Shown: positions 1,146-22,720 of the stretch, piece after piece | Position numbering within the stretch: position 1 is the stretch's first letter | Layout of the letters: each line of letters begins with the position of its first letter | Assembly (NCBI GenBank): GCA_964388035.1 | Contig: CAYLZE010000078.1 | Coordinates: 1 to 23,953, forward strand | Direction: 5' to 3' | Length of the DNA stretch: 23,953 nucleotides | Source of the DNA: an uncultured archaeon | GTDB lineage: Archaea; Asgardarchaeota; Lokiarchaeia; Sigyniarchaeales; SOKP01 | The notes under the pieces: generated by a model | What the model saw: only the letters and a program-made list of their open reading frames with translations | Databases searched by the model: none | What the model was told of the DNA's origin: nothing | Program-made: the position numbers and the translations under genes

Positions 1146-2705
1146 TCATTCTGTAGGAATGAGAAGGATAAAATTCGTTCCTTTTGAAGGATTGCCCTCT
1201 ATCCTATCTTTTATGGAAATATCACCTTCATATCGAGCCAAAATAGCCCCGACCAAGACCAATCCTAAACCCCCTCCCTTAATCCCACTTTTTGTATTCG
1301 CCGCTTTCTGCAAAATTAATTTCTTTCTTTCATCCGCTATGCCAATTCCATTATCTATGATCTCAAACTTCATGTATTTAATCTCTCCTTTCTTGATTTT
1401 AGAAATTACAATCTGAACTTCTATTATTGGATTCTCATTGTATTGCACGCTATTAGTTAAAATCGATTCAAAGAGAGAAGTTAAAAATTCATCCGCCTTT
1501 ACCCAAAACTTATCCTCTTCTGATTCAATTTCAATAACAATTTGTTTTTTTGGAAAGGAATCCTTTATATTTTTTATAGTGTCATAAAGAACATCCCTGG
1601 CATTTATTATTTTTAATTCTATATCCTTACTCTCCATATCTGATAAAATTTGGATATTTGAAATCAAATTGGCTCCTCTTTTAGACTGATCTTCAATAAT
1701 ATCTAGCATTTCTTGAAATTCTACTTGCTTTTCGGGATTTTTTTTTAAAACTGAAAGTAAATTCACAGAAGAGAGTATATTTTGAAGGATGTTTTTCATA
1801 TCGTGGGTAAAAAGATCTTCATAAAAATTTACTCGAGTTAAGGCTTCCTTGTATCCCCTTTTTGAGGAAATCAATTCTTGCTGAAACTTCTTGCGTTCAG
1901 AGAGATCATGTCCAATCACTTGGATTAAAGGTTCATCTTCCATTTGTAATAATGTTGATTGTAAATTAATCCATACCATCCCTTCATTCTTTCTTCTAAT
2001 TTGTAATTCTATGGGAGGTTGGGGGGTTCCACCAACAATTTTTACCATTCGTTCAAAAAGCTTCGGTAAGTCTTTAGGTAATATGGTTTTAAGTTTATAA
2101 TACTTTTTACCAATCAATTCATCTCGAGAATATCCTGTAAGATGTTCAACTGCAGGGTTTATATCTAATATTTTACCTTTCTTATTTATGAGGAGAACAG
2201 AATTAGGAGAAGTTTCAAATAGAGTACTATATTTTCTTATTGATTCTCGCAACTTATTTTCAGTGGCTTTTTGTCCACTTACGTCAAGAAACATGCCTAA
2301 AAATGCAGTTTTATCTTCATAAAAAAATGCTTTAGAGAATATTTCGATCCATACCAATTTTCCACCTTTCGTGATAACTTGAATTTGGGTATGATTTATT
2401 TTATTCCTTGGGCCTTTTATCTGCTCTTCAATTGAATTTAATACCATTTTCCGATCCTTAGGATTGATTGCTTTGAAGAATTGGTTGGCTTTCCAATTAT
2501 ACATCTCTTCAATTGAGTATCCAATGATGTCAGCAGCTTTTTGATTAATATAAATTAATCGAAAATCTTGCATGACTGCTATTCCTACTATCGGTTGTTC
2601 AAAAAAATTCTGAAAGAATTTTTGTGGATCTTTTAGTTCATGTAGATTGTCGTTTTCCGATATTTTTTTTTTATTATCTTCATTGTTAAAATCGAAATTT
2701 GACAT
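1146..2705 (-). CDS. Cytoplasmic PAS-PAS sensor histidine kinase
   Basis: Two PAS/PAC domains (YINQKAADIIGYS...WIEI; INPAVEHLTGYSRDELIG...WINL), H-box FTHDMKN, N-box ILTNS, G1 DNGIGI, G2 GLGL and terminal GTNF. No transmembrane segment. Confidence 0.92.
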   Translation of the reverse strand: MSNFDFNNEDNKKKISENDNLHELKDPQKFFQNFFEQPIVGIAVMQDFRLIYINQKAADIIGYSIEEMYNWKANQFFKAINPKDRKMVLNSIEEQIKGPRNKINHTQIQVITKGGKLVWIEIFSKAFFYEDKTAFLGMFLDVSGQKATENKLRESIRKYSTLFETSPNSVLLINKKGKILDINPAVEHLTGYSRDELIGKKYYKLKTILPKDLPKLFERMVKIVGGTPQPPIELQIRRKNEGMVWINLQSTLLQMEDEPLIQVIGHDLSERKKFQQELISSKRGYKEALTRVNFYEDLFTHDMKNILQNILSSVNLLSVLKKNPEKQVEFQEMLDIIEDQSKRGANLISNIQILSDMESKDIELKIINARDVLYDTIKNIKDSFPKKQIVIEIESEEDKFWVKADEFLTSLFESILTNSVQYNENPIIEVQIVISKIKKGEIKYMKFEIIDNGIGIADERKKLILQKAANTKSGIKGGGLGLVLVGAILARYEGDISIKDRIEGNPSKGTNFILLIPTE

Positions 2706-3040
2706 TATGATTCTTACTTCTTCTTTTTTTCACCAAAATAAAATATAATAATTAATCAGTAGTATTTTTATATATTTAATCAAGAAACTTTCTTTATTAA
2801 AAGATAATTATTATGTTTTTTAATTTTAAAAAGAGTGATTATTTCCCGATTTCTGATCCTTTCAATGAAATATTAATTAAGTTTTACTTTTGTTCTATAA
2901 AAGAGTACATCCAATTGAATTTTTGGTTGATATATTTTTCCTTAAACAAGTATTTAATTTAAGGAAATTTAGCAGAAAGTATTTAAAAGAGAATTGTTAA
3001 TTATTATTTGTTAATATAAATAAATTCAATAATAATAAAT

Positions 3041-3050
3041 AAGGAAGGAA
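3041..3050 (+). promoter_or_regulatory. Purine-rich SD-like element (AAGGAAGGAA) upstream of the aIF1 ATT
   Basis: The tract ends 9 nt before ATT 3060, within the SD-start spacing seen at other genes in this window. Confidence 0.55.
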
Positions 3051-3059
3051 TAACGTAAA

Positions 3060-3377
3060 ATTAAGGACGAATTAATCTGTCCAAGATGTTCTTTGCCCAA
3101 GGAGCTGTGCATCTGCGATAATCTGGATGTGGAAGAGTCTCGCGTTTCTATTTTTAATGAAACGAGAAAATGGGGCAAAGTGGTGACGATGGCTGATTTT
3201 AAGGGCAATTCCAATATTGATCTGATGGACTTTCTGGCCAAAGCTAAAAAGAAGTTTGGTTCGGGAGGGACTGTTCGGGGAAATGCTGTAGAATTGAGAG
3301 GAGATCACCGATTTAAGTTGAAAAAATTTTTAATTGACTTAGGCTTCCCCGAAGAAAATATCATGATAAAAGAGTAA
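3060..3377 (+). CDS. sui1: Translation initiation factor aIF1 / SUI1, probable non-canonical ATT start
   Basis: SUI1 motifs RKWGKVVT, KKKFGSGGTV and VELRGDHR. In-frame extension upstream of the track's TTG 3093 gives (I/M)KDELICPRCSLPKELCIC, the archaeal aIF1 CxxC-LPKEL-CxC zinc knuckle. There is an in-frame TAA at 3051-3053. Confidence 0.93.
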   Translation: MKDELICPRCSLPKELCICDNLDVEESRVSIFNETRKWGKVVTMADFKGNSNIDLMDFLAKAKKKFGSGGTVRGNAVELRGDHRFKLKKFLIDLGFPEENIMIKE

Positions 3378-3507
3378 GGATCCAAATCACGAGAATAGAG
3401 AATTTTAAGCATCATCCAAACCTATAAGCAAAAAAACCATCTTGGGAATGAGATAATAAGTGGAATATTAAATTAGATTAAATAAGATAGTTTGAAATTT
3501 ATAAATC

Positions 3508-3517
3508 TTTTTTTTTT
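3508..3517 (+). terminator. Possible oligo-T terminator downstream of aIF1
   Basis: T10 run about 130 nt after the stop codon. Archaeal terminators are T-tracts, but the AT-rich background weakens the call. Confidence 0.3.
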
Positions 3518-3681
3518 ACTAAAAATTCATTCTTAAATTGTTTATTTAATCAAAACTTATTTTCTTACTTTTAGTATTTTATATTTCGGATAAGCTCTCG
3601 AAAATGCGATCAAAGATTTCTATCATGAGTCTCAATGTAATAGTAGTATTTTAAAAATCTATATAGTATTAATCATAAACT

Positions 3682-3726
3682 TCGGATAAAATTAGAGGAA
3701 TCTAATATTCTTAAGGTTTTATCCGA
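3682..3726. repeat. 10-bp inverted repeat TCGGATAAAA-N25-TTTTATCCGA, with a further TTCGGATAA copy at 3585-3593
   Basis: Read directly from the intergenic sequence upstream of the AbiEi-like gene. Confidence 0.6.
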
Positions 3727-3883
3727 TAGGATTAAATCCTTTAGAAGATTGTTTGTAATAACATCAAGATTCATATTTCTTTTTTTATCATGAAGAAGTT
3801 GTTATAATAGTAAATCTAATTTAAGATTTTTCATTATGCATAATTATATAATAATTTTTTGATCCAGGATCGAGTGATTTTAA

Positions 3884-4531
3884 GTGTCAATGAATAAAAT
3901 TTATCAAAAAATAAGAGAAGATAAGAAGGAATTCATCACCTCAGAGTATCTAACGTCTATCAGTCATATTTTTTTCTATGACACATATAATGTTATCCGT
4001 TATCTTACATCTCGTAATTATCTTTTAAAAATTTTTAAGGGTATCTTTTATGTAAAGAGTGAAGAAGAGGTTGAGCAACATACAACCAAATATTCACTTT
4101 TAGAATTAGTAGGAAGAGGTCTTGAACTAAAAGGAATAACAAACTGGTATTATGGTTTATATACTGCATTAATCTTGAATGAAGTAATTTCCAAGGAAGT
4201 AACAAAAGATATTTATATTGTGAGTGATACTCTTTTTCGTACCAAACCCTTGGAAATATTAAATTATAAATTTAAGTTTATAAAATTAAAATATAATCTC
4301 ACAAATTTTGGAGTTATTGAAGATGTTATTAAATATTCAAACATTGAAAAAACACTTCTAGATTTCATCTATATTGCAAAATATAAATCAGTAGCAGATC
4401 AAAAGATAATAATTGAAGTTAGAGATTATGTTGAGACTGCATCTCCCAAAAAACTCCAGGAATATGCCATGCATTATCCAATGTCAAACAGGAATATTGT
4501 AACCCAATTGATAACCCAATTGTTAAATTAA
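3884..4531 (+). CDS. AbiEi-like (type IV toxin-antitoxin antitoxin family) transcriptional regulator
   Basis: N-terminal wHTH wing 'YLLKIFKGIFYV', then 'YYGLYTAL', 'IYIVS' and C-terminal 'YSNIEKTLLDF', matching the AbiEi pattern. Confidence 0.7.
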   Translation: MSMNKIYQKIREDKKEFITSEYLTSISHIFFYDTYNVIRYLTSRNYLLKIFKGIFYVKSEEEVEQHTTKYSLLELVGRGLELKGITNWYYGLYTALILNEVISKEVTKDIYIVSDTLFRTKPLEILNYKFKFIKLKYNLTNFGVIEDVIKYSNIEKTLLDFIYIAKYKSVADQKIIIEVRDYVETASPKKLQEYAMHYPMSNRNIVTQLITQLLN

Positions 4532-5796
4532 AGAGCGTTTAAAAAGAGGAGGAAATTTTTGGAGCATTCATTATTTTCTTCGTCGTTATAGGTTTTACTT
4601 TTCTCCTTAGACTTTTCTATATATTTTTTAAGAATAGTTCTTTTCCATTGTTGGAATTGTTTGGTTTCTTTGCCATTCCAATAAGCATTTTTACCTTTAA
4701 TTCTTTCATATGTTTTAATTTTATTTCTATCCTCTAAAAAAGTTTTATAATCATTAGTTGGATTCCCTCCATAGTAAGGATTCCCTTCCGTTCGCGCCCG
4801 GAATTCGTTTGCCATTTTCTTTTTCCATTGTTGGTATTGTTTGGTTTCTTTACCATTCCAATAAGATTTCTTTCCTGTAATTTTTTCATAAATAGTCATT
4901 TCTAAATTATCCTTCTTGTAATCGTCTAATTGGTCCTTTTCGATTACCTTTTTTTTAGCAAAAGATAGATTTTTTTTACTAATGGTTTTATTTTGCATGG
5001 TACCTTTTCCTTTCTTTTTGTAATCAGAAGTGTCTTTAGAATCCTTATTATTTATTTTTAGGATATTTTTTAGAAACTTCTTATAATCTTGAGTTGGATG
5101 GCTCTTATAATAAGGATTTCTTCCAGTTTTTTGCTTGAATTTCTGATTCATTTTCATTTTCCAAGACTTATATTGCTTAGTTTCGACTCCATTCCAAATT
5201 GCGTTTTTTCCCACTGTTTTTTCGTAAATTATAACTTCTATAGGTTTTTCTTCACCATCTTGTTTTACACTTTCTTTTTTCGATGATTTTGTACTTTTTA
5301 AAGCTTTGACCTTTTTTTGAGCTTCGAGATGAATTAATTGTTTATTCTCCTTAATCAGGTTTATTAAACTGGAGATGTCAACTTTTTTCCCCGAACGGAC
5401 GGCAAAAATAGGATCGTTTAATCCATCCAGATGGATAGAAAAGTCAAAATACTTGTGATGATTGATATAAGGTCCAAAATACTTAGCTATAATGAATACT
5501 GCTCCATTTAGATGGGACACGCTCACGTGGGTACTGGTATTCTCGGTATATTGATAAAGAGCAAGATTCTCAAATGAGTTTATTTCATTCAATATCTTAG
5601 TTTCTTTTACATTCTTTATTATTCGGCTGAACTCCTTCGTACTTTTGTTATTGATAATTGAATTTATGACTATTAATGTATATTCTGAACCATTTATCAA
5701 GGTTGTTGCGATAAGTCTCTTTATAAATTGGACTATTTCACTCCAACAAGATTCCTGAGCGATTCCGATGATTTCTCTTGTCAATTCCTCTGACAT
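4528..5796 (-). CDS. Hypothetical Lys-rich protein with C-terminal aromatic repeats (YEKxxGKxxxWNGxETKQYxxW)
   Basis: 422-aa ORF with SD GGAGTG. It has three strong and two degenerate repeat copies and no recognisable family. Confidence 0.75.
   Translation of the reverse strand: MSEELTREIIGIAQESCWSEIVQFIKRLIATTLINGSEYTLIVINSIINNKSTKEFSRIIKNVKETKILNEINSFENLALYQYTENTSTHVSVSHLNGAVFIIAKYFGPYINHHKYFDFSIHLDGLNDPIFAVRSGKKVDISSLINLIKENKQLIHLEAQKKVKALKSTKSSKKESVKQDGEEKPIEVIIYEKTVGKNAIWNGVETKQYKSWKMKMNQKFKQKTGRNPYYKSHPTQDYKKFLKNILKINNKDSKDTSDYKKKGKGTMQNKTISKKNLSFAKKKVIEKDQLDDYKKDNLEMTIYEKITGKKSYWNGKETKQYQQWKKKMANEFRARTEGNPYYGGNPTNDYKTFLEDRNKIKTYERIKGKNAYWNGKETKQFQQWKRTILKKYIEKSKEKSKTYNDEENNECSKNFLLFLNAL
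4641..4865. repeat. Intragenic direct repeat: 45 bp at 4641-4685 and 4821-4865, 2 mismatches, 180 bp offset
   Basis: ttttccattgttggaattgtttggtttctttgccattccaataag versus ttttccattgttggtattgtttggtttctttaccattccaataag. Confidence 0.9.
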
Positions 5797-9298: not shown

Positions 9299-10855
9299 TT
9301 AGAGCATTAATTTTGCAATCATCTCGGGTAAATTTTTCGGAGTACAAGCCAGAACGTCAATTCCGATAGATTTCATGGATTTTGCATAATTACGATTATA
9401 CATGGGTTCACTGTTATAATCTAAAGCCGCTACTCCAAGTATTTTAGTCTGTCCTTCTAGCACTTGTTTTAATGTTTTGGTTAATTCCTCATAAGACCCT
9501 CCTTCATAGAAATCACTGATAATTACAAGAATAGTTTTTTTTGGATTCTTAATTAATGAATGTCCATATTTAACAGCCTTAGAAATATTCGTACCACCTC
9601 CTAATTGTACGGTCATTAATACTTCAACAGGGTCATTAATTCTGCTGGAAAGATCTACAACTTGAGTATCGAATATCACGAGATTGGTATATACTGCGGG
9701 TAAACTAGCGAAAATTGATGCGATAACAACTGAATAAATAATGGAGTCTGTCATTGAGCCACTTTCATCGATTAAAACAACTATTTGCCATGGTTTCTTT
9801 TTCTTTTCTGCACTGAAAAACCGAGGTTCGGCCATTATTAATTTTTTCATGGATGGATCGTAATGTTTTAAATTTCTGCGAATACTTTGTTTCCAGTCAA
9901 TATTTCTAAAAACTTTGATGGGAGTATGGGCATCTCGTTTAATTGCGCCTATGATATGTTTTTCTACCTCATCCTTGAATTTGTCTTTTAAATCTTCAAC
10001 CACTCTTTTGACTAAATTGCGCGCTACCTCTTTCACATCATTAGGAAGCATGTGTTTTAGACTAATTATGGTTTTCACCATCTCGAGACTAGGTTCAACT
10101 TTTTGAAATAATTCTGGATTTGCTATGATATCTTTGATATCTGATCTTTCAATTAGGTCTTTTTCTAATACTTCCTTTGATTCTTTGGGAAACAGTTCCT
10201 TTACATACTCAATCCAATTAGGAATTGAAATATTACTTGGTCCTAATCCCGCGCTACCTTTCTGACTTTCATTTTTTCCATAAACCATTTCTAAAGTATC
10301 ATCCATTTTCTTTAGTTTATCATGTTTGTAATCAACGGAGGGGCTTCCCTTTGCTCCCATACTTCTCCCGGACTCAAAATTTGTAATTTTAGATCTTTCC
10401 TTTCTACTACTTGCACCATTGCTCTTACCTTGTTCTCTTCCCTTCATGCCACTTGAACTTTTTTGTTGTGACCCTGTCCCGATTTTTTCAGTTACTTTAT
10501 TTTCATTCTCTTTACTTATCAATATTTCTTTGTCGTTTTCAATTGGATTCGCTTCTTCTTGAACTATATCCTCCAATTGCTTCTTTAAACTACTTTCCCT
10601 ACCCTCTTCTTGCTTTTCTCCTTCTTTTTCATCTTCTTTTTGTTGTTTATATTTATTAGGATCTAATTCCTCCTCACGGGATATACTTTCAGTTTCTTCA
10701 TCAGAATTAAAATTAAAATCATAATCTTCTGCATTCTTTCCTAAAATAAGTCTCCATCTGTCCATTGCCTCTTTCTTCAATCCAGATTTCTCTTTGATAA
10801 ATTCTTCCGTAAAAAATTGCTCAGCATTCATTTGATTTAAACCTCTCCAAACCAT
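9299..10855 (-). CDS. VWA (MIDAS) domain protein, YehP/CoxE-like (start probably ATG 10831)
   Basis: N-terminal 'RWRLILG', 'IDWKQSIRRNLKHY', MIDAS DESGS, 'QLGGGTNI' and 'ISDFYEG', all typical of YehP-like proteins. A GGAGAGG SD precedes ATG 10831. Confidence 0.88.
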   Translation of the reverse strand: MVWRGLNQMNAEQFFTEEFIKEKSGLKKEAMDRWRLILGKNAEDYDFNFNSDEETESISREEELDPNKYKQQKEDEKEGEKQEEGRESSLKKQLEDIVQEEANPIENDKEILISKENENKVTEKIGTGSQQKSSSGMKGREQGKSNGASSRKERSKITNFESGRSMGAKGSPSVDYKHDKLKKMDDTLEMVYGKNESQKGSAGLGPSNISIPNWIEYVKELFPKESKEVLEKDLIERSDIKDIIANPELFQKVEPSLEMVKTIISLKHMLPNDVKEVARNLVKRVVEDLKDKFKDEVEKHIIGAIKRDAHTPIKVFRNIDWKQSIRRNLKHYDPSMKKLIMAEPRFFSAEKKKKPWQIVVLIDESGSMTDSIIYSVVIASIFASLPAVYTNLVIFDTQVVDLSSRINDPVEVLMTVQLGGGTNISKAVKYGHSLIKNPKKTILVIISDFYEGGSYEELTKTLKQVLEGQTKILGVAALDYNSEPMYNRNYAKSMKSIGIDVLACTPKNLPEMIAKLML

Positions 10856-13320
10856 TCTTCAAATATTTTGCGAATATTATTATCTATCATCTTGAAAAAA
10901 TCTTTAACATCCTCTTGCACCACTTCATCAAATTGGACCTCCTTCTTTTGTATCAATCCGTAATACTCTGCTAGTTTTTCTATAAAGATCTCATATTCAT
11001 TAGGATTTAGTTGAGAAAATGCTTTTCTTAAGGCAGGTAAGATAGCAGAAAAAACATCCCAATTAATAGACTCCACCATTGTAGCCATTACATTTATGAT
11101 ATCTTGATTAAACAGTATTTTTGCTTGACATACATATATAAGACCTCGAATCAAATCTCCCACTCTTACTTTTATGGTATCTATACTACTTAAATACCCA
11201 CTAATTATGGTTTTTATATCAGAAATACTCGTGTAATTCATTAAATAGAGAATTCCAAGAGTTCCCCCCTTAATAAATTCATTGTTAGTATTATCCATGC
11301 AAGTTTTAATGCTTCCCATATAAACATTTAAATCAATTTCTATCTTTTGAATTGAAATTAACGTATTTGCTAAAGTTTTAAAAGCATCTATATAAGTAAC
11401 TTCTTCTGCGGTGGGAGGATTAGCAGAATTTGGAATGGAAAAGCATGAAGTGTAATAGCTTCTTTGAATTAAGTGCTTTATGAGCTCTAAAATTTCCTTA
11501 GGAATGTTTAGCATTAACATGTATTGGTAGATCATGATAATGTTGGAAAATCCTTCCACCAAACTTAAAAATTGATTGTCTTGTTCCAGAGAATTTAAAC
11601 ATTCCTTATATAAATCCTTTATATGATCTGAATAACCCATGAAAAGACTTTGGAATAATAATGTTGTAATCAAGGCAAAATTCTTTAGATTCTTTTTAGT
11701 TTCCTCAACAAGCATATTTTTACTTGCTTCTTCTAAAGTGGACCCATAAGTACTGAGTTCTACGAGTTTTACATCAATCCTTGGGTTCCATTGCAAATTC
11801 CATTTTTCCGTGAATGTTCCAGTAATCCCTTTTAGAACATCTGGTCCCAATAAGCGTTCCGTGTAATCAATTCCTAAGAATTTAATTTTCCAAAATAATT
11901 GAGAGATTTTGGATTCAGATTCTTCCCTTAAATTTAAGGTTATAATTTGCTTTTTCTCTTCGATATTAATTCCATAATTTTCTAACTGCAGATAAAAGTC
12001 TTTCTGTAATGGTAATTTACCAATTTTATTCGTTATTTTTCCAACTTTATATCCTATGGTTTTAGCCTGAATTAATGAATTTAAATATTTACCATCGATT
12101 TCCGGATTACCTTTGACAACAACCATGTAGATTGAATCAATAATATCTTTAAGATCTGGTTCTTCACGCCTTCTAAGCATTGCAAGCATTTTGGCTCCTT
12201 GAAAAGAGTTTATAGAATCAGAAATTGAAACAATATTGCCCTCTAATCTTGCTTGCGCGTAAATATCTGTTATGGTCTCTAATGCCACCGCTTCATATGG
12301 AGATGATACTTTCTTCATGATTTTATTCCATATATTATCATAGAACTGAGGAGCCTGGTTCCCTGAAGTATACCCCGATTTTTGGCTCAGACGATAATAG
12401 GAGAAAGGTATTAATGAATTAATTAATTCTTTTACGGGAAAGGTAAAGTTTTTTGCTATAGAATCAATCAAAGCAACCGAGTGTATGCCGCCCGTAATTA
12501 CTAATACCTCCTTTTCTTTTACTTTGTATTTTTTAATGTAATTTTCGATATTGTACTTCATGTAAGCTTCTCTGATTAGAATATTATCTGCTTTGAGGAA
12601 TTCTGCATCGATAGATTGACGTACAAAAGCACAAAAAACTAGCATGTTTTCCCTTAAGGTCTCAATATTTGATTTTTGTGCACCTATTTCGAATAAAGTT
12701 TCCCAAGTTTCGTCAAAATTTTCAAAATCAAAAACTCGAGCAAATTTTTGGTAAAAAGAACTTAAAATATAAACAGATTGTTTTTCTATATTCACTGATT
12801 CAATTTTTTGCCCTTTACTTTTTGCTTGGGATGTTTGATGAGATATGAGTCCAGTTAGCGGTAAATCGATAAAATGAACGGGAATGTTGTTTTGCATGGA
12901 TTCCGAAAGTGCTATTAATTCTGGAGAATAGGAAACAAATGGGTAATATGCTTCAAATTTAGCCGGAATAGAAACGTCAGAACTTAAAATCCCGTTTAAA
13001 CCAAATACATTTTTAACATCTGCATAAAGTGATAATAATGCAATAGGAGGTCTTGTATCTTTATCAACCATGTATTGAATGAGATCATCAGCAAATGCTG
13101 GTCCTTCTACTAATATTAATTTTGGTTTATACTTTTTTATCCATCGTTTTACGAGTACGGTTGAACCAGGAGAATGGTGGCGAACAGGTAAATAAGTGAT
13201 CTGTTCCTTTTTAATTTTAGAAATTCTTTCATTTATGATTGAAGTATCGATACCTAAAGATGTTCCTATCTCAAAAAGGATACTTTTGAGGTTTTTTGCA
13301 CTTAAATAACTATCTTTCAT
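10837..13320 (-). CDS. YehM-like (DUF5682) protein
   Basis: 'PVRHHSP', 'ILVEGP', 'YYPF..YSPE..A', 'FIDLP', 'RE.YM', 'VITGGIHS', 'PFSY.RL...SGY.SG' and 'E.W.L.W'. It lies between the YehL- and YehP-like genes. Confidence 0.85.
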   Translation of the reverse strand: MKDSYLSAKNLKSILFEIGTSLGIDTSIINERISKIKKEQITYLPVRHHSPGSTVLVKRWIKKYKPKLILVEGPAFADDLIQYMVDKDTRPPIALLSLYADVKNVFGLNGILSSDVSIPAKFEAYYPFVSYSPELIALSESMQNNIPVHFIDLPLTGLISHQTSQAKSKGQKIESVNIEKQSVYILSSFYQKFARVFDFENFDETWETLFEIGAQKSNIETLRENMLVFCAFVRQSIDAEFLKADNILIREAYMKYNIENYIKKYKVKEKEVLVITGGIHSVALIDSIAKNFTFPVKELINSLIPFSYYRLSQKSGYTSGNQAPQFYDNIWNKIMKKVSSPYEAVALETITDIYAQARLEGNIVSISDSINSFQGAKMLAMLRRREEPDLKDIIDSIYMVVVKGNPEIDGKYLNSLIQAKTIGYKVGKITNKIGKLPLQKDFYLQLENYGINIEEKKQIITLNLREESESKISQLFWKIKFLGIDYTERLLGPDVLKGITGTFTEKWNLQWNPRIDVKLVELSTYGSTLEEASKNMLVEETKKNLKNFALITTLLFQSLFMGYSDHIKDLYKECLNSLEQDNQFLSLVEGFSNIIMIYQYMLMLNIPKEILELIKHLIQRSYYTSCFSIPNSANPPTAEEVTYIDAFKTLANTLISIQKIEIDLNVYMGSIKTCMDNTNNEFIKGGTLGILYLMNYTSISDIKTIISGYLSSIDTIKVRVGDLIRGLIYVCQAKILFNQDIINVMATMVESINWDVFSAILPALRKAFSQLNPNEYEIFIEKLAEYYGLIQKKEVQFDEVVQEDVKDFFKMIDNNIRKIFEEWFGEV

Positions 13321-13327
13321 TGATTAA

Positions 13328-14602
13328 TTATTTTACCTGATTTTGAAATGTATTAACAAATTCTTTCCATGAGTCAGACTGGTTGGCTCTCATATGGGCA
13401 ATCATATTGAAGTACTCTTTTAATTTATTCATATTTTCTTTATCATCTTTTACGACAGAATCAATAAGATTCATAGCAATGTGTTTTGGCTCTACTTCTG
13501 ACTTTCCAAAAAATTTTGCATAAATAGCGCTATCAAGCAGTAAGGAAATTTCTTCAGAAGTGGACATCACGGTTGAAATTGGATTAAATCGACCCCCGCT
13601 GGTACTACGGCCTGTTCTTAATTCTTGGAAAACGGTAATTAATAGATCTAACGTGTCTTCGGGGATTTGGATTTTGAATCCAATCTTTGTTAATAAATCA
13701 TGAGTTCTTTGCATCACTATTTTCCGTTCTAATTCTTTATCTTGAACCACGGGTATGTAGATGAAATTAAAGCGACGTTTTAATGCTGCACTCATTTCAT
13801 TAACACCCCGATCTCTGTCATTTGCGGTTGCAATCACGTTAAATCCGGGATTTCCGAAAATTAAATATTCTGATCCTAATTCTGCAATAGGGATGACTTT
13901 TTCGGAAAGAATGGATATCATGCTATCCTGTATTTCTTGTGGACAACGAGTTAATTCTTCAAATCGTAGAATTTTACCCTCTCTCATTGCATTTATCGTG
14001 GGAGAAGCAACTAATGACTTGGGACTCGGCCCTTCTGAAACGAGCAAGGCATAATTCCAAGAATATCTAATTTGGTCTTCGGTTGTTCCCGCTGTCCCTT
14101 GAATGAGATATGTGCTGGTTCCACATATGGCGGAAGCAAGATGTTCCGAAAGCCATGATTTAGCCGTTCCAGGTTCGCCAATTAACATTAAAGCTCTCTC
14201 ACTCGCCAATGTAACAATAGCTTTTTGAATGAGATCCCGGTCTCCATAAAATTTCGTGGTTATTTTTACTTTTTTCTTGCTTCCGTTATTTTCTAAAGGA
14301 AATTCTTCATTTGAGCCCGTTATAAAGAGTTCCACCAACTTTGGCGACAAAATCCAGTTCGGTGGTTTTGGATAAGTATCATTTTGAACTAATGCCATCA
14401 ATTCATCCCGATGTAATTCTTCAGCGGGGAATCTTATTTTATTATCATTTTTCTTATCATACTTTTTATCGCATCCGAGATCTATCTTTGGAACTTTCGG
14501 TACTGCTTTATTATTCAGAGGAGGCATCTTTTCAGTTGGTTCCTCTACTTTAGCAGTAGATTGAGGTGCGGATACTTTTTTTGGACTTTTTTTTTTTGCC
14601 AT
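13328..14602 (-). CDS. MoxR-family AAA+ ATPase, YehL subfamily
   Basis: Walker A variant GEPGTAKSWLSEHL, 'QGTAGTTEDQIRYSWNYA', Walker B FEE, sensor TAND and 'EMSAALKRRFNF'. Confidence 0.93.
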   Translation of the reverse strand: MAKKKSPKKVSAPQSTAKVEEPTEKMPPLNNKAVPKVPKIDLGCDKKYDKKNDNKIRFPAEELHRDELMALVQNDTYPKPPNWILSPKLVELFITGSNEEFPLENNGSKKKVKITTKFYGDRDLIQKAIVTLASERALMLIGEPGTAKSWLSEHLASAICGTSTYLIQGTAGTTEDQIRYSWNYALLVSEGPSPKSLVASPTINAMREGKILRFEELTRCPQEIQDSMISILSEKVIPIAELGSEYLIFGNPGFNVIATANDRDRGVNEMSAALKRRFNFIYIPVVQDKELERKIVMQRTHDLLTKIGFKIQIPEDTLDLLITVFQELRTGRSTSGGRFNPISTVMSTSEEISLLLDSAIYAKFFGKSEVEPKHIAMNLIDSVVKDDKENMNKLKEYFNMIAHMRANQSDSWKEFVNTFQNQVK

Positions 14603-14625
14603 ACTTAATCTACATTCATGAATTT

Positions 14626-15768
14626 TTATTTTACTTTATATAATGATTTTAGTAAAGCTTTGTTATCAATAGGAGTACTTTTACTTATTGGATATGTAAT
14701 TTGATCCTTATTGATAAAACTTAGAGGATATAAAGTTAATTGTCCTCTCTCTAAAAATAATTTGCAAAACATCCCATCAATTGAATTTCTTTTTCCTCTT
14801 AATTCTTTTAATTGTTCAATTAATAGTTGATTACCACTTTTATCTGGAATTCGAATAATTAAGGGATAATCTTCCATGTGTGTTATCAAATACTTATAGT
14901 TTATTGATTTTCCTTCATTTTCACCTTCTTTTTGAACCTCAATTACCTTAACATCCTTTACGTATAAATAATCTAAGTTACTCGTTGGGAGATCAAATGG
15001 AGTTACTAAAATGGAAGATTTAATTTTAGCATGGATTTCATCAGAATTAAGATAGTATTTATTCAATTTTGAGATAATAATTTCATTATCTTTAACGGAT
15101 TCTAAATCAACATATATTTTTGATTCTGGATTTTTTTCCAAGAATATCATTTTTTCTTTTTCATCATAAAAAGAATTTTCCACTTCAATATGATTTGAAA
15201 GAAGAATATTAACTCCGCTATTTGGAACGGAATTCGGCAAATCAAGATGTAGTACACTTTCGGGAACTAATCCTGATCTATATGGGAGCATTAGATTCCA
15301 TTTTAATATTTTTCCTCTCGTATTTCCAAATAATGAGAGAAAATAGAAAATAAATCCCATGAGAGTACCTTCTAAATTGATTTTTTCTGTTCCGATGAGT
15401 CTTAGAATGAATTTAGTTGTTATTTCAGGATTTGCTCGTGCACCCATTATATTATTATAAATTTGAGGTTTTTCTTTCTTGAGACTCTCATGGGAGGTAA
15501 GAGCTTGACTTAAAAGCCAACAATTACTTAAAAAAAATACGTATCGATCAATATTAAAAGCAGAACGATTATCTAAAAATCTCTTTACTTCTACATGTAA
15601 ATATCTTAAGGAGGTTGCTAATCGAAACATCTCTAATTGAGATGCATTCTGCAGAAAAAATTCAATTTTTTTTATATCATTTGCTGCAATAAAATTCAAT
15701 CCACTAAAGACGAGACTTTCAGAATACTCTTTTATTTGTTCCGCAACTATTTCTAATTGAAGAGACAC
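14626..15768 (-). CDS. Hypothetical protein of the YehL-type operon (N-terminal helical bundle plus beta-rich region)
   Basis: 380-aa ORF with GTG start, tightly co-oriented with its neighbours (8 and 23 bp gaps). Confidence 0.7.
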   Translation of the reverse strand: MSLQLEIVAEQIKEYSESLVFSGLNFIAANDIKKIEFFLQNASQLEMFRLATSLRYLHVEVKRFLDNRSAFNIDRYVFFLSNCWLLSQALTSHESLKKEKPQIYNNIMGARANPEITTKFILRLIGTEKINLEGTLMGFIFYFLSLFGNTRGKILKWNLMLPYRSGLVPESVLHLDLPNSVPNSGVNILLSNHIEVENSFYDEKEKMIFLEKNPESKIYVDLESVKDNEIIISKLNKYYLNSDEIHAKIKSSILVTPFDLPTSNLDYLYVKDVKVIEVQKEGENEGKSINYKYLITHMEDYPLIIRIPDKSGNQLLIEQLKELRGKRNSIDGMFCKLFLERGQLTLYPLSFINKDQITYPISKSTPIDNKALLKSLYKVK

Positions 15769-15776
15769 AATTTTTT

Positions 15777-16118
15777 TTAATCCTCTCTTTTTATGATTTT
15801 TTTAACACTTTCTAAGGTCATTACTTTTTCAAACATTCTCGCATAGGTAATCATTTTTAAAATATCCTTCGAAAGCTCTCTTTTCAAATCATTTGAAACA
15901 GGGGGGTGAGATAATTGTTCTATTTTTAATAAAAAAGAATTTAAGAGTTGACTTAGAGTTGAAAAATTTATTGTCTCAAATTTCTGTTTTAATTCGATTA
16001 ACTCAGAGAGATTCTCATTACTGAGGGATTCTACACCTTTTATTAAAACTTCATTTAACTTGAATTTAATTCCATCTAAAATATTAAATGATTCGATGAG
16101 ATCCCTACTTTCAAGCAA
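15777..16118 (-). CDS. Small all-helical hypothetical protein of the YehL-type operon
   Basis: 113 aa, TTG start with GGTGA SD 9 nt upstream, amphipathic helical pattern. Confidence 0.7.
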   Translation of the reverse strand: MLESRDLIESFNILDGIKFKLNEVLIKGVESLSNENLSELIELKQKFETINFSTLSQLLNSFLLKIEQLSHPPVSNDLKRELSKDILKMITYARMFEKVMTLESVKKIIKRED

Positions 16119-16136
16119 AGTTCTTTATCACCAGAG

Positions 16137-16646
16137 TTAAAAAGCAATAAAATCTTCCGGTAGTATTTCAACAGGACGCCATTCAATTTTCCCTTCTAGA
16201 GCATTTTGATATTTTAAGAAAATCCTCGTAGCTTCTGTTTTATCTAAAGAAGGCTTTTGAAAATTGGTATTTTGAACCCATTTTATCAACTCTTCCTTTG
16301 TTCCTTGCTTTGATTTAATCGCCGCAAACAAAGCTAATATAATATGCTTGCAGATTTTACCCCTTAAACCTCCACAAGGATGGAGATTTTGGGTCCCGCA
16401 GAAAAAACTGCCATCTTTATTAAGTTTAACCGCATATTCTAATTCTTTTGGATGGGTCTGAGATTTAATCACTGCTGTTAGAAATTCGTTTTCTTTTTCA
16501 ATATAAAGGAGATTCGTCTCTTTCTTATACATTTTTATGGCTTTATCAATTCTTGGAGGGATCGTTTGGTCCCTTAACGTGGAATTTAGCTCCGAAACGA
16601 AGCTTACAATATTTTCACTTATAGTCATTTTTTTATACCTTGACAA
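16137..16646 (-). CDS. SWIM-like zinc-finger protein
   Basis: 'Y.V.L...G.FFCGTQNLHPCGGLRGKICKHIILAL': beta strands, then Cys residues and the SWIM-type CKH followed by a hydrophobic helix. Confidence 0.75.
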   Translation of the reverse strand: MSRYKKMTISENIVSFVSELNSTLRDQTIPPRIDKAIKMYKKETNLLYIEKENEFLTAVIKSQTHPKELEYAVKLNKDGSFFCGTQNLHPCGGLRGKICKHIILALFAAIKSKQGTKEELIKWVQNTNFQKPSLDKTEATRIFLKYQNALEGKIEWRPVEILPEDFIAF

Positions 16647-16678
16647 TTTTTGATCTTACCTATTTATAAAATCGTAAC

Positions 16679-16700
16679 TTTATAAAAGCTACTTTTTTTT
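16679..16700 (-). promoter_or_regulatory. Putative BRE/TATA promoter of the six-gene MoxR-VWA operon
   Basis: The minus strand reads an A-rich tract, then GTAGCTTTTATAAAG, about 35-40 nt upstream of the SWIM gene start. Confidence 0.4.
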
Positions 16701-16878
16701 GAAATTGTTGAAAAAATTTTAATAAAGGGAAGGGTCCATTCTCACCAAATAAAAGTGAATTACATTTAATTCTTGAAAATGGATAATAATAATTTCCTAT
16801 TTTAACCGATTACATCAAGGAAATAGATGACTTTCATTGTTAAAAAAAAATTAGATATTTTTGCTTGTTTATCTACTT

Positions 16879-17961
16879 CTAAATTCTTTTCCAGATTATT
16901 TCCCCGTTAGATTGAAAGCTATAAACTTTTTCCATCCTGTTTAATTCTTTTAGTATGTTTAGGTCATGCATCATTTCGCTAATCTCCGCAATTACTATCG
17001 TATCTTTCACGCTTTCATTATCTAAGTATTTTTTAAATCGCTTTATGTAAATTTTAAATGTCTCTTCAGTTATTTCATCTAATGTCATCTCTTTTTTTTC
17101 ATTTAGTAGGTTTAAAATTTGTTCTTCTTTTTGATTAATGGAATCATAAAATTTAACCAATCTCTCTTTTAAATTTACTGAAATGGGATTTTTGCCATGC
17201 CCTGATAAAACAATTTTTACTTTTTTGTCTTGGACCATTTTAATCGCTTTTTCAATAGATTGTTTCAAATCATGAAAATTTCCAGCTGCTCCACTAACAC
17301 TGGCGCCAACAGTACTTAAATGAATATCCGAGGAGAAGAGGATCTTATCTTTTTCTCTATAAAAAAAACACATGCCTGGTGTATGGCCAGGAGCATGAAT
17401 GACCTCCAAATCTCCTACTAGTTTATCACCGTCTTTAAAAACGTGTTCGACTTTTCTTGGTTTTATATTCCAAATATCAAATATCATTTTAAATCCTGGT
17501 TTAACCAGAACATTTGTATTTAATCCCGCATAAAAATTTATAGCAGTTAGGAAATCTTCATAATTGGTTTTCCTTTTTAGTAAAGTTAAATCAAAAAGCA
17601 TTTTATAATATTTGAAAGGATTTTCAACGTATTCTTTATCCGCAAGATGGATAAATCCTTCCACATTTTCATTTTTCTCCCGCAAATAATCTAAAAGTAC
17701 GACATGGTCGCTGTGTCCGTGAGTAAGATAAAAATATTTAATTTGAGAGATGTTAATATGATTATCTTTTAACGTTTTATTGAATTTTTTTCTAGAACAT
17801 CCCGGATCAATGATTGCATAATTATTATCCTCTATTTTAATTAAATAACTATTACATGAATTGAAGTTCATTGAATCCATGGAGTCTTGATGGATTAAGA
17901 TGATATCTTCATTAATTCTCGACCATGCTTGGGTACTTCTTTTGGCTCTATTGTTATTCAT
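16879..17961 (-). CDS. MBL-fold metallo-hydrolase with probable C-terminal winged helix
   Basis: IDPG, THGHSDH, APGHTPG, FSSD and SGHG motifs. C-terminal 'ILNLL....MTLDEI'. Confidence 0.88.
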   Translation of the reverse strand: MNNNRAKRSTQAWSRINEDIILIHQDSMDSMNFNSCNSYLIKIEDNNYAIIDPGCSRKKFNKTLKDNHINISQIKYFYLTHGHSDHVVLLDYLREKNENVEGFIHLADKEYVENPFKYYKMLFDLTLLKRKTNYEDFLTAINFYAGLNTNVLVKPGFKMIFDIWNIKPRKVEHVFKDGDKLVGDLEVIHAPGHTPGMCFFYREKDKILFSSDIHLSTVGASVSGAAGNFHDLKQSIEKAIKMVQDKKVKIVLSGHGKNPISVNLKERLVKFYDSINQKEEQILNLLNEKKEMTLDEITEETFKIYIKRFKKYLDNESVKDTIVIAEISEMMHDLNILKELNRMEKVYSFQSNGEIIWKRI

Positions 17962-17971
17962 TTAGGATGCC

Positions 17972-19426
17972 TTATTTTGACTGTAAAAATTTCGCATATT
18001 GCCACATTCGAATTAAAACCCGAACTCCTTCTTCAGGAAAATAGACGGGAATCCCATTATCTTGGAGATGTTCTACGAATTTTTCCTGTCTTGTATTATA
18101 GCAAGTCATTATAATGGGTTTTTGATACTTATTTTTAAATTCTATCAACTCATCAAAAAGCGCGAGAAAAAAATCTTCCATCATTTCCCCGAAGTTTTTC
18201 ATGGTTAGAACACTTTCATTATTTTTCAAAAAATCGGGCACATCAACAAGATTCTCAAAATAATTCGTACCCATTAAGCCATAAAAAATAAGGGAATCAA
18301 TCTCATCACTCTTTAATAAAATATCCGGCAAAATGCTCAAGTAATTCTGCATATCATCCGTGTAAGTAAGATCAATAGGATTCATAGTTGAGGCAGTCTC
18401 AGGCATCCAAGGCTTTAGTTCTTCTTGTAATTTACTGGATAATATCGGGACTTTCATTCCACTGCTTTCAAATAGATCCGACATCAATGAACCAGGACCA
18501 CCCCCCATCGTGAGAATTGCCACCCGATTACCTTTCGGCAAAGGTAAAGTATCAAAAGCCTGAAGCAAATTCAACATTTCCACGCTATCTTTTACTTTAA
18601 TTGCACCCGTTTGCTCGCAAATGGAATCAATCACATATCCCGGAGAAGTTAGTGCTGCGGTGTGGGATTTTGCCGATCTCATGCCTGCATCAGTCTGTCC
18701 TATTGGAATTATAACAATTGGTTTTTTGGGGTTAATTCTTTCCACTAATTCAATAAATTCTTTCCCTCTTCTAACTGCTTCAAAATAGATTCCAATACAG
18801 TTGGTTTCGCTGTCCCCCTCAAATGCTTCTAAATAATCTACTAAATCAGTGTTTACCTCATTTCCTACTGAAACTATTTTTGAGATTCCTACACCTATTT
18901 TTTCACTAATTGCAATTAACGGTTGGACTGCATATGTTCCCGATTGAGAAATAATTGAAACCCCTCCTTTTCTGGGTGGCCAAGGAACGTGAGTAATGTT
19001 TATGGTTGGGGCAACCACTTCACCTGAACAATTTGGACCGATAATCTTAATACCATATTTTTCCGCGATCTTCCTCATTTGCTCTTGACCTTCCGGATTC
19101 CCTGATTCTGAAAAGCCTCCCGATAGAATGATAACATGCTTTATACCTTTTTCTCCACAATCTTCTAAAAATTGATTTATTAAGTTTGTTGGGGTTGCCA
19201 TTACTGCAAGATCTACTTTTTCAGGAACATCTTTAATACTTTTAAAGGTCTTGAATCCTAATATTTCATCTTCCTTTGGATGAATGGGAAAGATTTTTCC
19301 TTTATACCCAGCTGAAACCAAATTCAAGAGATGCAAAGTTCCAAACTTTTGGAGCATTGTGCTTGCTCCATAAAATGCAACGGACTTAGGATTAAAAAAG
19401 CCATCTAACTCTTTAAGTGAAACCAT
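17972..19426 (-). CDS. acdA: ADP-forming acyl-CoA synthetase, alpha subunit (CoA-binding)
   Basis: 'FNPKSVAFYGAS', 'SGGFSE', 'IGPNC', 'SQSG', 'VSVGN', phospho-His motif 'SHTAAL', 'GGG' and 'NPIDL'. Confidence 0.88.
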   Translation of the reverse strand: MVSLKELDGFFNPKSVAFYGASTMLQKFGTLHLLNLVSAGYKGKIFPIHPKEDEILGFKTFKSIKDVPEKVDLAVMATPTNLINQFLEDCGEKGIKHVIILSGGFSESGNPEGQEQMRKIAEKYGIKIIGPNCSGEVVAPTINITHVPWPPRKGGVSIISQSGTYAVQPLIAISEKIGVGISKIVSVGNEVNTDLVDYLEAFEGDSETNCIGIYFEAVRRGKEFIELVERINPKKPIVIIPIGQTDAGMRSAKSHTAALTSPGYVIDSICEQTGAIKVKDSVEMLNLLQAFDTLPLPKGNRVAILTMGGGPGSLMSDLFESSGMKVPILSSKLQEELKPWMPETASTMNPIDLTYTDDMQNYLSILPDILLKSDEIDSLIFYGLMGTNYFENLVDVPDFLKNNESVLTMKNFGEMMEDFFLALFDELIEFKNKYQKPIIMTCYNTRQEKFVEHLQDNGIPVYFPEEGVRVLIRMWQYAKFLQSK

Positions 19427-19427
19427 T

Positions 19428-20123
19428 TCATTCTTCCTCCTTAAGTATAATTCTTGCGTCTACTACCACAGCTCCTTCACCTTTTTTAAACACAATTACC
19501 GGATTTAAGTCAAAGTTTTCGATGTCTGGATTTTCCATCATTAATCTACAACATTTCATAATGATATTCACAATTGAATTCAAATCGGCTTTAGGAGCTC
19601 CACGATATCCATCCAAGAGTGGAAATGCTTTTATACTCTTTATCATTTTAAGTGCTTCTTTTTCTGTTATTGGACATACTCTGTAGGAAACATCTTTAAA
19701 GATTTCCACAAAGATTCCTCCCAAACCACACATTAAAACGGGACCAAAATTAACATCCCTCATTCCCCCTATAATGATTTCTACAACACCATTATTCATC
19801 ATTTTTTGTATATTAATTCCTACAATAACAGCATTTGGATTATATTTTTTGGCATTTAAGAGAACTTCATTATATGCCCTTTTTAGTTCTTCTTCATCAT
19901 GAATATTTAATTTAATTATTCCTGCTTCTGTCTTATGAACAATATCGGGACTCATTAGCTTTATCACGAGAGGATATCCAATCTCATTCCCAAATTCGAT
20001 AGCTTCTGATTCGTTTTTAGCCAGTTTGTATTTCCCTACGGGAATGTCATAATGGGAAATTAAATCTTTACTTTCATGTTCCATTAAAAAAAATCTTTGA
20101 TCATCAAGAATGGTATTAATCAT
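19428..20123 (-). CDS. acdB: ADP-forming acyl-CoA synthetase, beta subunit (ATP-grasp)
   Basis: 'GYPLVIKLMSPDIVHKTE', 'FGPVLMCGLGGIFVEIFKDVS', 'DLNPV' and 'VDARI'. There is a 1-bp gap to the alpha gene. Confidence 0.9.
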   Translation of the reverse strand: MINTILDDQRFFLMEHESKDLISHYDIPVGKYKLAKNESEAIEFGNEIGYPLVIKLMSPDIVHKTEAGIIKLNIHDEEELKRAYNEVLLNAKKYNPNAVIVGINIQKMMNNGVVEIIIGGMRDVNFGPVLMCGLGGIFVEIFKDVSYRVCPITEKEALKMIKSIKAFPLLDGYRGAPKADLNSIVNIIMKCCRLMMENPDIENFDLNPVIVFKKGEGAVVVDARIILKEEE

Positions 20124-20154
20124 TTTTCTCGGTTCAATAATTTTAATTACCTTT

Positions 20155-20586
20155 TCATTTAATTAATTTTAATGTATTAAAGGAATATTCCAAAACTTTC
20201 ATTAAATAAATGGTTATTATAGCAAATATTAAATCAATTATTCCAAATACCAGTAAACCTGAAGCAATTTCTGGAAGGTTAAAAATATTAATAAAAATAA
20301 TAATCTGAATTGTAAAGCGTAAAATGATGATTAAAATAATATTTATTAAATAATTTTCAATATTGAATGAGGAAAGAGCAAGTATTAGTCCTATGATAAT
20401 TGCTAATAATCCCGCGGTTTGGTTAAAAGTGGGATACTTTAATTCAGAAATCCCTGCGCCTAATAAGTTTAATAAGGGAACGATAGCAAAAATTAGTAAG
20501 AAACCAAAAATGATTTCATAGATACCACCGATCATGGTAATTATTTTTAAAAAAGATTCAGCTCTTGTTTTTTCCAGCTTTTTCAC
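20155..20586 (-). CDS. Small integral membrane protein (about 4 TM)
   Basis: Four long hydrophobic stretches. The start is uncertain because the GTG lies inside an SD-like GGGGGTGA. Confidence 0.7.
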   Translation of the reverse strand: MKKLEKTRAESFLKIITMIGGIYEIIFGFLLIFAIVPLLNLLGAGISELKYPTFNQTAGLLAIIIGLILALSSFNIENYLINIILIIILRFTIQIIIFINIFNLPEIASGLLVFGIIDLIFAIITIYLMKVLEYSFNTLKLIK

Positions 20587-20607
20587 CCCCTCGGGATCAT
20601 TGAAAAA

Positions 20608-21426
20608 TTATCTTCCCAGAAAATCAGGTTCTCTCTTCTCAAAAAAGGCCAATAGCCCTTCAGTAAAATCTTCAGAATCAAATGCTTTAAATAGTGCCTC
20701 CGATTCGTTATCCAATGCATTTATTATTTTATCTTCTAATACTTTGTTAATTGCTAACTTGGCAAGCCCTATTGAAAAAGTAGGGCCTTTTGCTAATCTT
20801 TCTGCGATTTCTATCACTTTAACCATCAATTGGTCTTCTGGAAAAACCCCATTAATTAATCCCATGCTTAATGCTTCTTGAGAACTAAATCGGTCTCCAA
20901 AAAATATTAGCTCTTTCGCTTTATGAATTCCAACTAATCTTGGCAAAAGATACGTGGAAGACATTTCCGGGATTAACGCCCGCTTCATAAAAAATGTACC
21001 TAACTCTGCAGTATCCGCAGCATAAATTAAATCACAATTTAATGCTACATTTAAGCCTCCTCCTAAAGCCAATCCATTAACAGCCGCTATGATTGGTTTG
21101 GGAGTGCTTTGCATTTTCAAAACGGTTCTTTTCTGTGAAACGTCTATTTCCATTTCTCCAGACTGCATTTTACCTCCATCCTCAACACTTTCTACATCGC
21201 CCGCCATCCCCTGGCTTGCTTGATTGAAATCTCCACCAGTGGAAAATGCTCTTCCTTTTCCCGTTATGATGGCCGCTCTTATCTCCTTATTGTTCTTAAT
21301 CTCATCTAATGCGTCATATAATTCATCAAACATCTTACCATTAATAGCGTTTAGTTTATGATCCCTGTTGAAGGTAATAACCGCAACGTGATTTTTAATT
21401 TCAAAAATAATATACTTGAATTCCAT
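20608..21426 (-). CDS. Crotonase-family protein, likely enoyl-CoA isomerase-type (ECI2/PaaG-like)
   Basis: 'AFSTGGDF', 'PKPIIAAVNGLALGGG' and 'LPRLVG..KAKEL'. It lacks the two hydratase glutamates and carries 'LIPEMSS'. Confidence 0.85.
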   Translation of the reverse strand: MEFKYIIFEIKNHVAVITFNRDHKLNAINGKMFDELYDALDEIKNNKEIRAAIITGKGRAFSTGGDFNQASQGMAGDVESVEDGGKMQSGEMEIDVSQKRTVLKMQSTPKPIIAAVNGLALGGGLNVALNCDLIYAADTAELGTFFMKRALIPEMSSTYLLPRLVGIHKAKELIFFGDRFSSQEALSMGLINGVFPEDQLMVKVIEIAERLAKGPTFSIGLAKLAINKVLEDKIINALDNESEALFKAFDSEDFTEGLLAFFEKREPDFLGR

Positions 21427-21520
21427 ATCTCTCTCCTCTCAATCCTTCCTAATTTTGATATTTTTAACCTAATTATCGAAAAAATAATAAAAAAAAATTG
21501 TAAATAGAAATATAAAAAAA

Positions 21521-21850
21521 TTATTTCATGAGCATCTGAAGTTTCAACATATCTTTCATGGGGCCTTTTGCTTTAATTTTTCCTCCCATGAATGCTTTTG
21601 TAGGGCTTAATTCGCCATCCATGATATCTATAATAATTTCAGCTGATGTTGTGATTATCATATCAGCGTCATCGACATCTCCGTCTTTTATTTCACATTT
21701 ATCCTCATCAAAAATTAAGTAATAATTTTCCGAATCTGTGAAATTAAATTGTAATGTCTTTTTAAAGCCCTTGAAACGCTCTGCATATGCTGGATCCTCC
21801 AGTTTGCTTACCATCTTCTTAATTCCTTCGACCAATTCTTCATTTGCCAT
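21521..21850 (-). CDS. SCP2 sterol/lipid-binding domain protein
   Basis: 'LQFNF', 'DADMIIT', 'GELSPTKAFMGGKIKAKG.MKDMLKL'. SD GAGG upstream. Confidence 0.88.
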   Translation of the reverse strand: MANEELVEGIKKMVSKLEDPAYAERFKGFKKTLQFNFTDSENYYLIFDEDKCEIKDGDVDDADMIITTSAEIIIDIMDGELSPTKAFMGGKIKAKGPMKDMLKLQMLMK

Positions 21851-21904
21851 TTTTATATCAACCTCTTATTATTTAATTTAAAAAAATTTAAAAAAATATG
21901 TTCA

Positions 21905-22705
21905 TTATTTACCTTTCCATTTGGGTTGCCGATTTCCTTCCATAAAGGCCGTGAAGCCTTCTATGACGTCTTCGCTATGAAATAGCTCTTGGAACGGTTC
22001 CCAAAGGGTTCCAATTGCTCGACTCCTCGTATAATGATATCCTTGCTGGAACCACTTTTTCGTCCATTTATGGCTTAAAGGAGCGACCATTTTCATTTCC
22101 CGAGCCATTTCCATGACTGCATCATGTAATTGTTCGTGGGGCGCTACTTTGTTAACTAATCCCATCCGATATGCTTCTTGAGCAGAAATGATCTTGCCGG
22201 TTAATAAAAGTTCTTTGGTATATCTCATTCCAATCAATTCGGGAAGGAGAAGAAACGCTACTCCACTCGCCAGTCCTCTTCGATTTTCCCAAAACCCCAT
22301 TTCTGCATCATCTGCAGCGATGGCGCAATCGCACCAAAGAGTTAACTCTAAGCCACCGGCGTATGCATATCCATTTATAGCAGCAATTAAAGGTTTGGGA
22401 TAGCGCATCATTAATTCACAGGGATCTAAAAGAATCCCAAGAAAATCTCCCAAATTTTTAAACCCCGTAGTGGACATTTCTTTTATATCCAATCCTGCCG
22501 AAAAAGCGGCCTTTCCTTTAACCTTTTCATCGTTCCCCGTCAGAATAATAACCCTAACGTTAATGTCATTCCACGTTCTTTCCAATACTTCGCCTATTTC
22601 TGCCCAGACAGTTCTACTCAAGGCATTACGCCTTTCGGGACGATTGATGGTAATCCATCCAACCTCATCTTCTATTTCAAATTTAATAGCTTCATATTTT
22701 ACCAT
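21905..22705 (-). CDS. Enoyl-CoA hydratase (crotonase family)
   Basis: 'NRPERRNAL', 'AFSAGLDI', 'AYAGGLEL' and 'FWE' (both catalytic Glu positions present). SD GGTGA. Confidence 0.9.
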   Translation of the reverse strand: MVKYEAIKFEIEDEVGWITINRPERRNALSRTVWAEIGEVLERTWNDINVRVIILTGNDEKVKGKAAFSAGLDIKEMSTTGFKNLGDFLGILLDPCELMMRYPKPLIAAINGYAYAGGLELTLWCDCAIAADDAEMGFWENRRGLASGVAFLLLPELIGMRYTKELLLTGKIISAQEAYRMGLVNKVAPHEQLHDAVMEMAREMKMVAPLSHKWTKKWFQQGYHYTRSRAIGTLWEPFQELFHSEDVIEGFTAFMEGNRQPKWKGK

Positions 22706-22720
22706 TTTAATATCACCTTC

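Follow-up and report, generated by a model that had tools for sequence, protein, structure and literature searches.

A conserved AUU start codon on the aIF1 gene of a Loki-type Asgard archaeon, a candidate for negative feedback on start-codon stringency

The window, i.e. the whole stretch of 23,953 nucleotides that we have analysed, corresponds to contig C78 in a genome of 5.47 Mb, the nearest relatives of which are Promethearchaeota (Loki-type Asgard) genomes. The subject of this work is the gene of the initiation factor aIF1, whose locus contains the following features:

2973..2988, forward strand: putative BRE (2973-2979) and TATA box (2980-2988); a similar element recurs in family loci
3042..3050, forward strand: Shine-Dalgarno-like (SD-like) motif within the purine motif 3041-3050, sharing the register of the family motif AGGTTGTGA and ending 9 nt before the ATT
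3051..3053, forward strand: in-frame TAA, which closes the aIF1 frame two codons ahead of the start and is followed by CGT AAA ATT(3060)
3060..3062, forward strand: ATT (AUU), the initiation codon of aIF1 as assigned from the family comparison, the tree and identical letters in independent runs
3060..3377, forward strand: aIF1 (SUI1) coding sequence, 105 aa; Pfam PF01253, single copy, match to 4MO0 and 5ZCY
3078..3116, forward strand: N-terminal four-cysteine zinc knuckle of aIF1, with CxxC at 3078-3089 and the last two cysteines at 3108 and 3114

Elsewhere in the window, the reverse strand carries a 422-aa open reading frame that has no Pfam match and contains three copies of a WNGKET-like repeat (4528-5796), and a long run of co-directional genes (9299-23953) that includes a VWA/CoxE-like gene (9299-10855) and a DUF5682 gene (10837-13320).

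The stop-to-stop frame of the aIF1 gene (3054-3377) matches SUI1 in Pfam (PF01253, E-value 6e-12, 46 bits against a cut-off of 25.5), and no second SUI1 match occurs in the host genome; with respect to homology with IF3, Pfam gave SUI1 alone. The protein aligns with the aIF1 of M. jannaschii (4MO0) from residue 6, the isoleucine before the first cysteine (E-value 6e-24), and the alignment includes the zinc knuckle, whose four cysteines are invariant across the alignment and mark the zinc type. In most archaeal aIF1 proteins, a four-cysteine knuckle of this kind is a known zinc site, and 0.8 Zn per protein has been measured for the M. jannaschii factor, which has the same class of motif (PMC6237735). 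Judged by its sequence, the protein of the window is an ordinary zinc-type aIF1. It also carries an arginine in place of the glutamine of the ELQGD motif (3294-3311) and Phe-Gly-Ser in place of the usual Cys-Ala-Ser before GGT (3255-3272), two variants that are rare in the host family.

An earlier note on this DNA had placed the stop codon TAA at 3051, an ATT at 3060, the CPRC motif at 3078-3089 and a TTG at 3093, all of which are correct on re-reading. Its observation that no ATG, GTG or TTG lies between this stop and the knuckle cysteines also stands, since the stop-to-stop frame offers none ahead of TTG 3093. The knuckle is complete only when translation begins before position 3078; initiation at TTG 3093 would halve it, as the note had argued, with the loss of the first two of the four cysteines. 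The note had left ATT 3060 and ATC 3075 as candidate starts, and the comparison with the host family retains the former and discards the latter: ATC 3075 is a conserved coding isoleucine, located before the first cysteine, that has undergone 10 synonymous changes, while the codon at the site of ATT 3060, six or seven positions ahead of the first cysteine, is ATT in 88, ATC in three and ATA in three of 94 distinct family loci, which come from related genomes and are not independent counts. With AUH at this site in 94/94 loci, chance can be rejected as the origin of ATT 3060; ATG in close relatives, which the note had named as evidence against its proposal, occurs in 0/94, and GTG and TTG are equally absent. 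In 86 of the relatives' 93 loci, an in-frame stop precedes the AUH by one to three codons, and in six relatives a single sense codon separates the two, which pins the start; where an in-frame GTG occurs upstream (six loci), it falls within the SD motif.

The letters themselves have been checked for an ATG>ATT error, a possibility that the note had raised: contigs of three DNA runs from three studies, one of which may be the source sample of the host genome, cover ATT 3060 at an identity of at least 99% and show no other letter. ATT is likewise read in an RNA-run contig from a near relative, which spans 3050-3236 with two differences and has the site only 10 nt from its end. Independent runs and the 94 family loci together rule out a sequence error.

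It is hardly credible, in our estimate, that the true start of aIF1 lies elsewhere, i.e. at TTG 3093, at an out-of-frame codon followed by a frameshift, or upstream of a stop that is read through, for example as selenocysteine, or that the letters are wrong. Such a reading draws on the in-frame TTG-TGA and the out-of-frame GTG inside the SD motif that are found in most relatives, as well as on the HdrA/VhuD-like in-frame TGA breaks, by which these archaea appear to read some TGA codons as selenocysteine; however, the stop in the window is TAA, TAA or TAG directly follows the TGA in many relatives, and the host genus and two others lack the TTG-TGA arrangement, so that neither selenocysteine read-through nor a start-stop element is retained. 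An upstream start with a frameshift is opposed by positions 3011-3059, which hold no ATG, GTG or TTG in any frame, and by 1-nt variation of the spacer, which shifts the GTG of the SD motif between frames. TTG 3093 is missing in most relatives, which have Ser-Phe-Pro there, and an aIF1 truncated to this codon has no exact match in the protein collection searched. An altered initiator tRNA has been rejected as the cause of AUU use, the initiator tRNA of the host genome being normal (A1:U72, three G-C pairs, CAU anticodon). The start of aIF1 at ATT 3060 is thus strongly supported by sequence comparison, from which AUU is the only usable start codon of the gene. In these genomes, gene callers shorten aIF1 and thereby cut into its zinc knuckle; a few percent of the other genes are mis-called as well.

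Selenocysteine has been described for Loki-type archaea. In the host genome, conserved in-frame TGA breaks that are consistent with it occur in HdrA/VhuD-like genes of contigs C45 (about 2200-4200) and C32 (about 4130).

The motif that the earlier note had seen to end 9 nt upstream of the ATT is SD-like: the 16S 3' end of the host genome is the standard archaeal anti-SD and pairs with it, and the family motif AGGTTGTGA (AGGAAGGAA in the host genus) ends at the conserved position of 9-10 nt 5' of the start. The duplex amounts to -6.2 kcal/mol in the window, with a family median of -7.9, and the SD of the family retains two central mismatches to the anti-SD. The BRE-TATA-like element recurs 70-85 nt 5' of the start across family loci, and its putative position in the window would place the transcript start near 3010, with an AU-rich leader some 50 nt long; the gene upstream is divergent. 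This arrangement suggests that aIF1 is expressed as a leadered transcript from its own promoter. A search for structured RNA near the start gave no above-threshold Rfam match, and a sigma-70 promoter scan of the upstream region is uninformative for an archaeon.

An AUU start is not by itself diagnostic in this family, because about 3-4% of the conserved genes in the host genome, and several ribosomal-protein genes of the family, start with AUH or CUG. The percentage derives from about 8 of 228 orthologue pairs compared between the host genome and its sister species, and is a lower bound that describes a minority, not an exception. An automatic screen of starts also returned many antisense shadow frames and selenocysteine fragments, which have been discarded manually, one of them after a check. 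Across some 80 ribosomal-protein operons of the family, uS14 starts with ATA or ATT in 26 of 66 cases (39%), uL15 does so in 13/33 and uS8 has ATA or ACG in 14/66; further cases occur in uS12, eS27, uS4, eL42, uL22 and uL14, the rows for uL6, uL18, uS3 and uS12 being qualitative only, with imperfect start anchors. The host genome itself has ATT starts for uS3 (contig C6) and PCNA (contig C67), and genes that need ATT, ATC or CTG are also found on its contigs C24, C18, C14 and C11; two such genes align to ATG in the sister species. The near-cognate starts of uS14 and uS8 have stronger SD duplexes than the canonical starts of the same genes (loci L207-L286; medians of -8.5 versus -2.4 kcal/mol for uS14, and -9.5 versus -6.2 for uS8), as expected for SD-guided initiation. 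On contig C67, uS12 (12026-12472, forward strand) is inverted and divergent from uS7 (11282-11944, reverse strand), an arrangement shared by the sister species (L426); the two genes are co-directional in the 23 other family loci.

Against this background, the start codon of aIF1 is set apart by how rarely it changes. On the aIF1 gene tree, it has changed twice, while five other conserved isoleucine codons and the isoleucine before the first cysteine have changed 10-26 times; the start is 5-13 times less changeable than synonymous isoleucine codons of the same gene, and is therefore constrained as a nucleotide triplet and not as isoleucine. When 48 genomes are matched to a tree of ribosomal proteins, the start of aIF1 shows 0 changes, as does the ATG of eS4, while the starts of uS14, uS8 and uL15 show 5-8, of which 2-4 lead from a canonical to a near-cognate codon or back. 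The earlier note had proposed that a conserved non-canonical start above the genome background would support its claim; the codon is fixed on aIF1, unlike on uS14, uS8 and uL15, but the background is itself 3-4%. Among the other factors, aIF1A, aIF2-beta and aIF6 have ATG in the host genome, and a canonical start is available for aIF1A and aIF2-beta in every relative scored.

The comparison across 30 Asgard families has revealed nine (the host family f1, and f2, f5, f7, f9, f12, f14, f19 and f20) with members whose aIF1 gene offers no usable canonical start, and f21 is probably a tenth. The near-cognate codons are ATT, ATA and CTG, located behind an SD; the remaining families have ATG, GTG or TTG. 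In the 19 genomes outside the host family that have a near-cognate aIF1 start (14 unambiguous, five with an alternative reading), the control genes are canonical in 54 of 55 cases (uS8 19/19, uL6 19/19, uS14 16/17), so that in those lineages the weak start belongs to aIF1 and is not shared by the control genes. On an Asgard tree of five proteins, at least seven changes of aIF1 start class are required; with a sample enriched for near-cognate cases and deep-node support of 34-81%, this tree allows more than one direction of change and number of origins. Beyond Asgard, the start is canonical in 115 of the 116 aIF1 genes sampled, which span four phyla, and is possibly CTG in the remaining one. 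The aIF1 of Thermococci (L566-L589) starts with GTG in 24/25 sampled genes, possibly a milder form of weak start.

The controls within the family and across lineages differ from aIF1, which supports selection holding the weak start specifically on this gene. The contrary reading, in which initiation is relaxed and an ancestor drifted to AUU with no selective edge over AUG, would find room in the near-cognate background of the family, and two third-position changes are by themselves too few to demonstrate avoidance of G. We nevertheless consider it improbable: a codon 5-13 times less changeable than its synonymous counterparts, showing none of the reversion seen in uS14, uS8 and uL15, and the occurrence of ATT, ATA and CTG on aIF1 in nine to ten families with canonical controls, both speak against neutrality.

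The best explanation of these findings, and one that we hold to be probably correct, is negative feedback of the infC/eIF1 type. The SD of the leadered mRNA would dock it on the 30S subunit and put AUU into the P site, where the normal initiator tRNA (CAU) would pair with it through a third-position mismatch. aIF1 would destabilise such mismatched complexes, so that, when abundant, it would more often reject initiation on its own AUU; when scarce, AUU would be accepted and more aIF1 made, and the loop would hold start-codon stringency at a set level. According to PMC4705826, restated in PMC6237735, 30S complexes of S. solfataricus accept both AUG and AUU mRNAs as long as aIF1 is absent, but only AUG mRNA once it is present; this AUU rejection was seen in vitro, on an SD-led mRNA. 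The aIF1 of P. abyssi destabilises and proofreads initiation complexes (PMC6237735). Features of the infC/eIF1 type, where the AUU of infC and the poor context of eIF1 are autoregulatory (PMC4705826), are found here too: the gene encodes a start-codon fidelity factor, as the single aIF1 of the host genome; its own start is suboptimal by sequence comparison; and this start is kept beyond the background of other genes (94/94 loci; 0 changes in 48 genomes; controls canonical in 54/55). We infer that the host aIF1 rejects, in vivo, the AUU of the mRNA that encodes it, and that selection maintains this. Counted against feedback are the near-cognate starts that are common in the family and the Gln-to-Arg change in the ELQGD motif of the host aIF1, which may or may not affect its function. 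Highly expressed family genes tolerate AUH behind a stronger SD, so that the lineage may discriminate only weakly against AUU; in addition, about two thirds of the Asgard families and 115/116 of the other archaea sampled are canonical on aIF1, and the loop is thus not needed by archaea in general.

The same observations could arise if AUU simply fixed aIF1 at a constant low level, with an efficiency that hardly depends on aIF1 and no meaningful feedback, a reading that we regard as unlikely but deserving of weight; its further element, that low aIF1 keeps initiation relaxed for the few percent of genes with AUH or CUG starts, is given the same modest weight. It accounts equally well for the conservation of AUH and the missing ATG, and fits the many family genes that depend on near-cognate starts, the tolerance of AUH by highly expressed genes, and the two central SD mismatches, which are expected of an output tuned low. 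However, a weak promoter or SD could equally lower the output, and the repeated mismatched start on aIF1 amid canonical control genes implicates the codon itself; moreover, if the host aIF1 rejects AUU as in Sulfolobus, feedback would follow automatically. Autoregulation remains our preferred reading.

If this reading is true, the weak start that recurs on aIF1 among the closest archaeal relatives of eukaryotes would complete a pattern across the three domains (IF3, eIF1, aIF1), and its conservation would provide genomic evidence on the role of aIF1 in vivo, until now mostly addressed in vitro. It is conceivable, although rather doubtful, that the level of aIF1 acts as a stringency dial which co-regulates the genes with near-cognate starts, a few percent of the genome that includes several ribosomal-protein genes, and that the weak start is old in Asgard archaea, a forerunner of the poor-context autoregulation of eIF1; the at least seven changes on the Asgard tree are compatible with repeated gains as well as with an ancestral weak start followed by reversions. 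The earlier note knew of no description of aIF1 autoregulation in Asgard archaea, and we found none in the papers searched; nor did these papers, most subscription journals being outside their scope, report an AUU-initiated or autoregulated aIF1 from any archaeon.

Among known systems, the closest in protein are the aIF1 factors of M. jannaschii, P. abyssi/horikoshii and S. solfataricus (4MO0, 5ZCY; PMC6237735), which belong to the same zinc-knuckle family and proofread initiation complexes; in the papers searched, no autoregulation is described for them. The bacterial infC gene, encoding IF3, starts with AUU and is subject to translational autorepression (Butler et al. 1987, by way of PMC4705826), and shares with the host aIF1 the AUU codon, an SD-led mRNA, a product that rejects non-canonical starts and strong conservation; it differs in that its feedback is proven, while that of aIF1 is predicted, and in that near-cognate starts are found on other genes of the host family too, amounting to a few percent. 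Since IF3 and aIF1 lack homology (PMC7531240, PMC8576121), an infC-like AUU on aIF1 would be a case of convergence. Eukaryotic eIF1/SUI1, which is autoregulated through the poor context of its AUG (Ivanov et al. 2010, by way of PMC6237735 and PMC4705826), is the orthologous factor, with a suboptimal start of its own and the same predicted logic; eIF1, however, keeps its AUG and weakens the Kozak context that is met by scanning, whereas the host aIF1 uses a mismatched codon that is placed by the SD.
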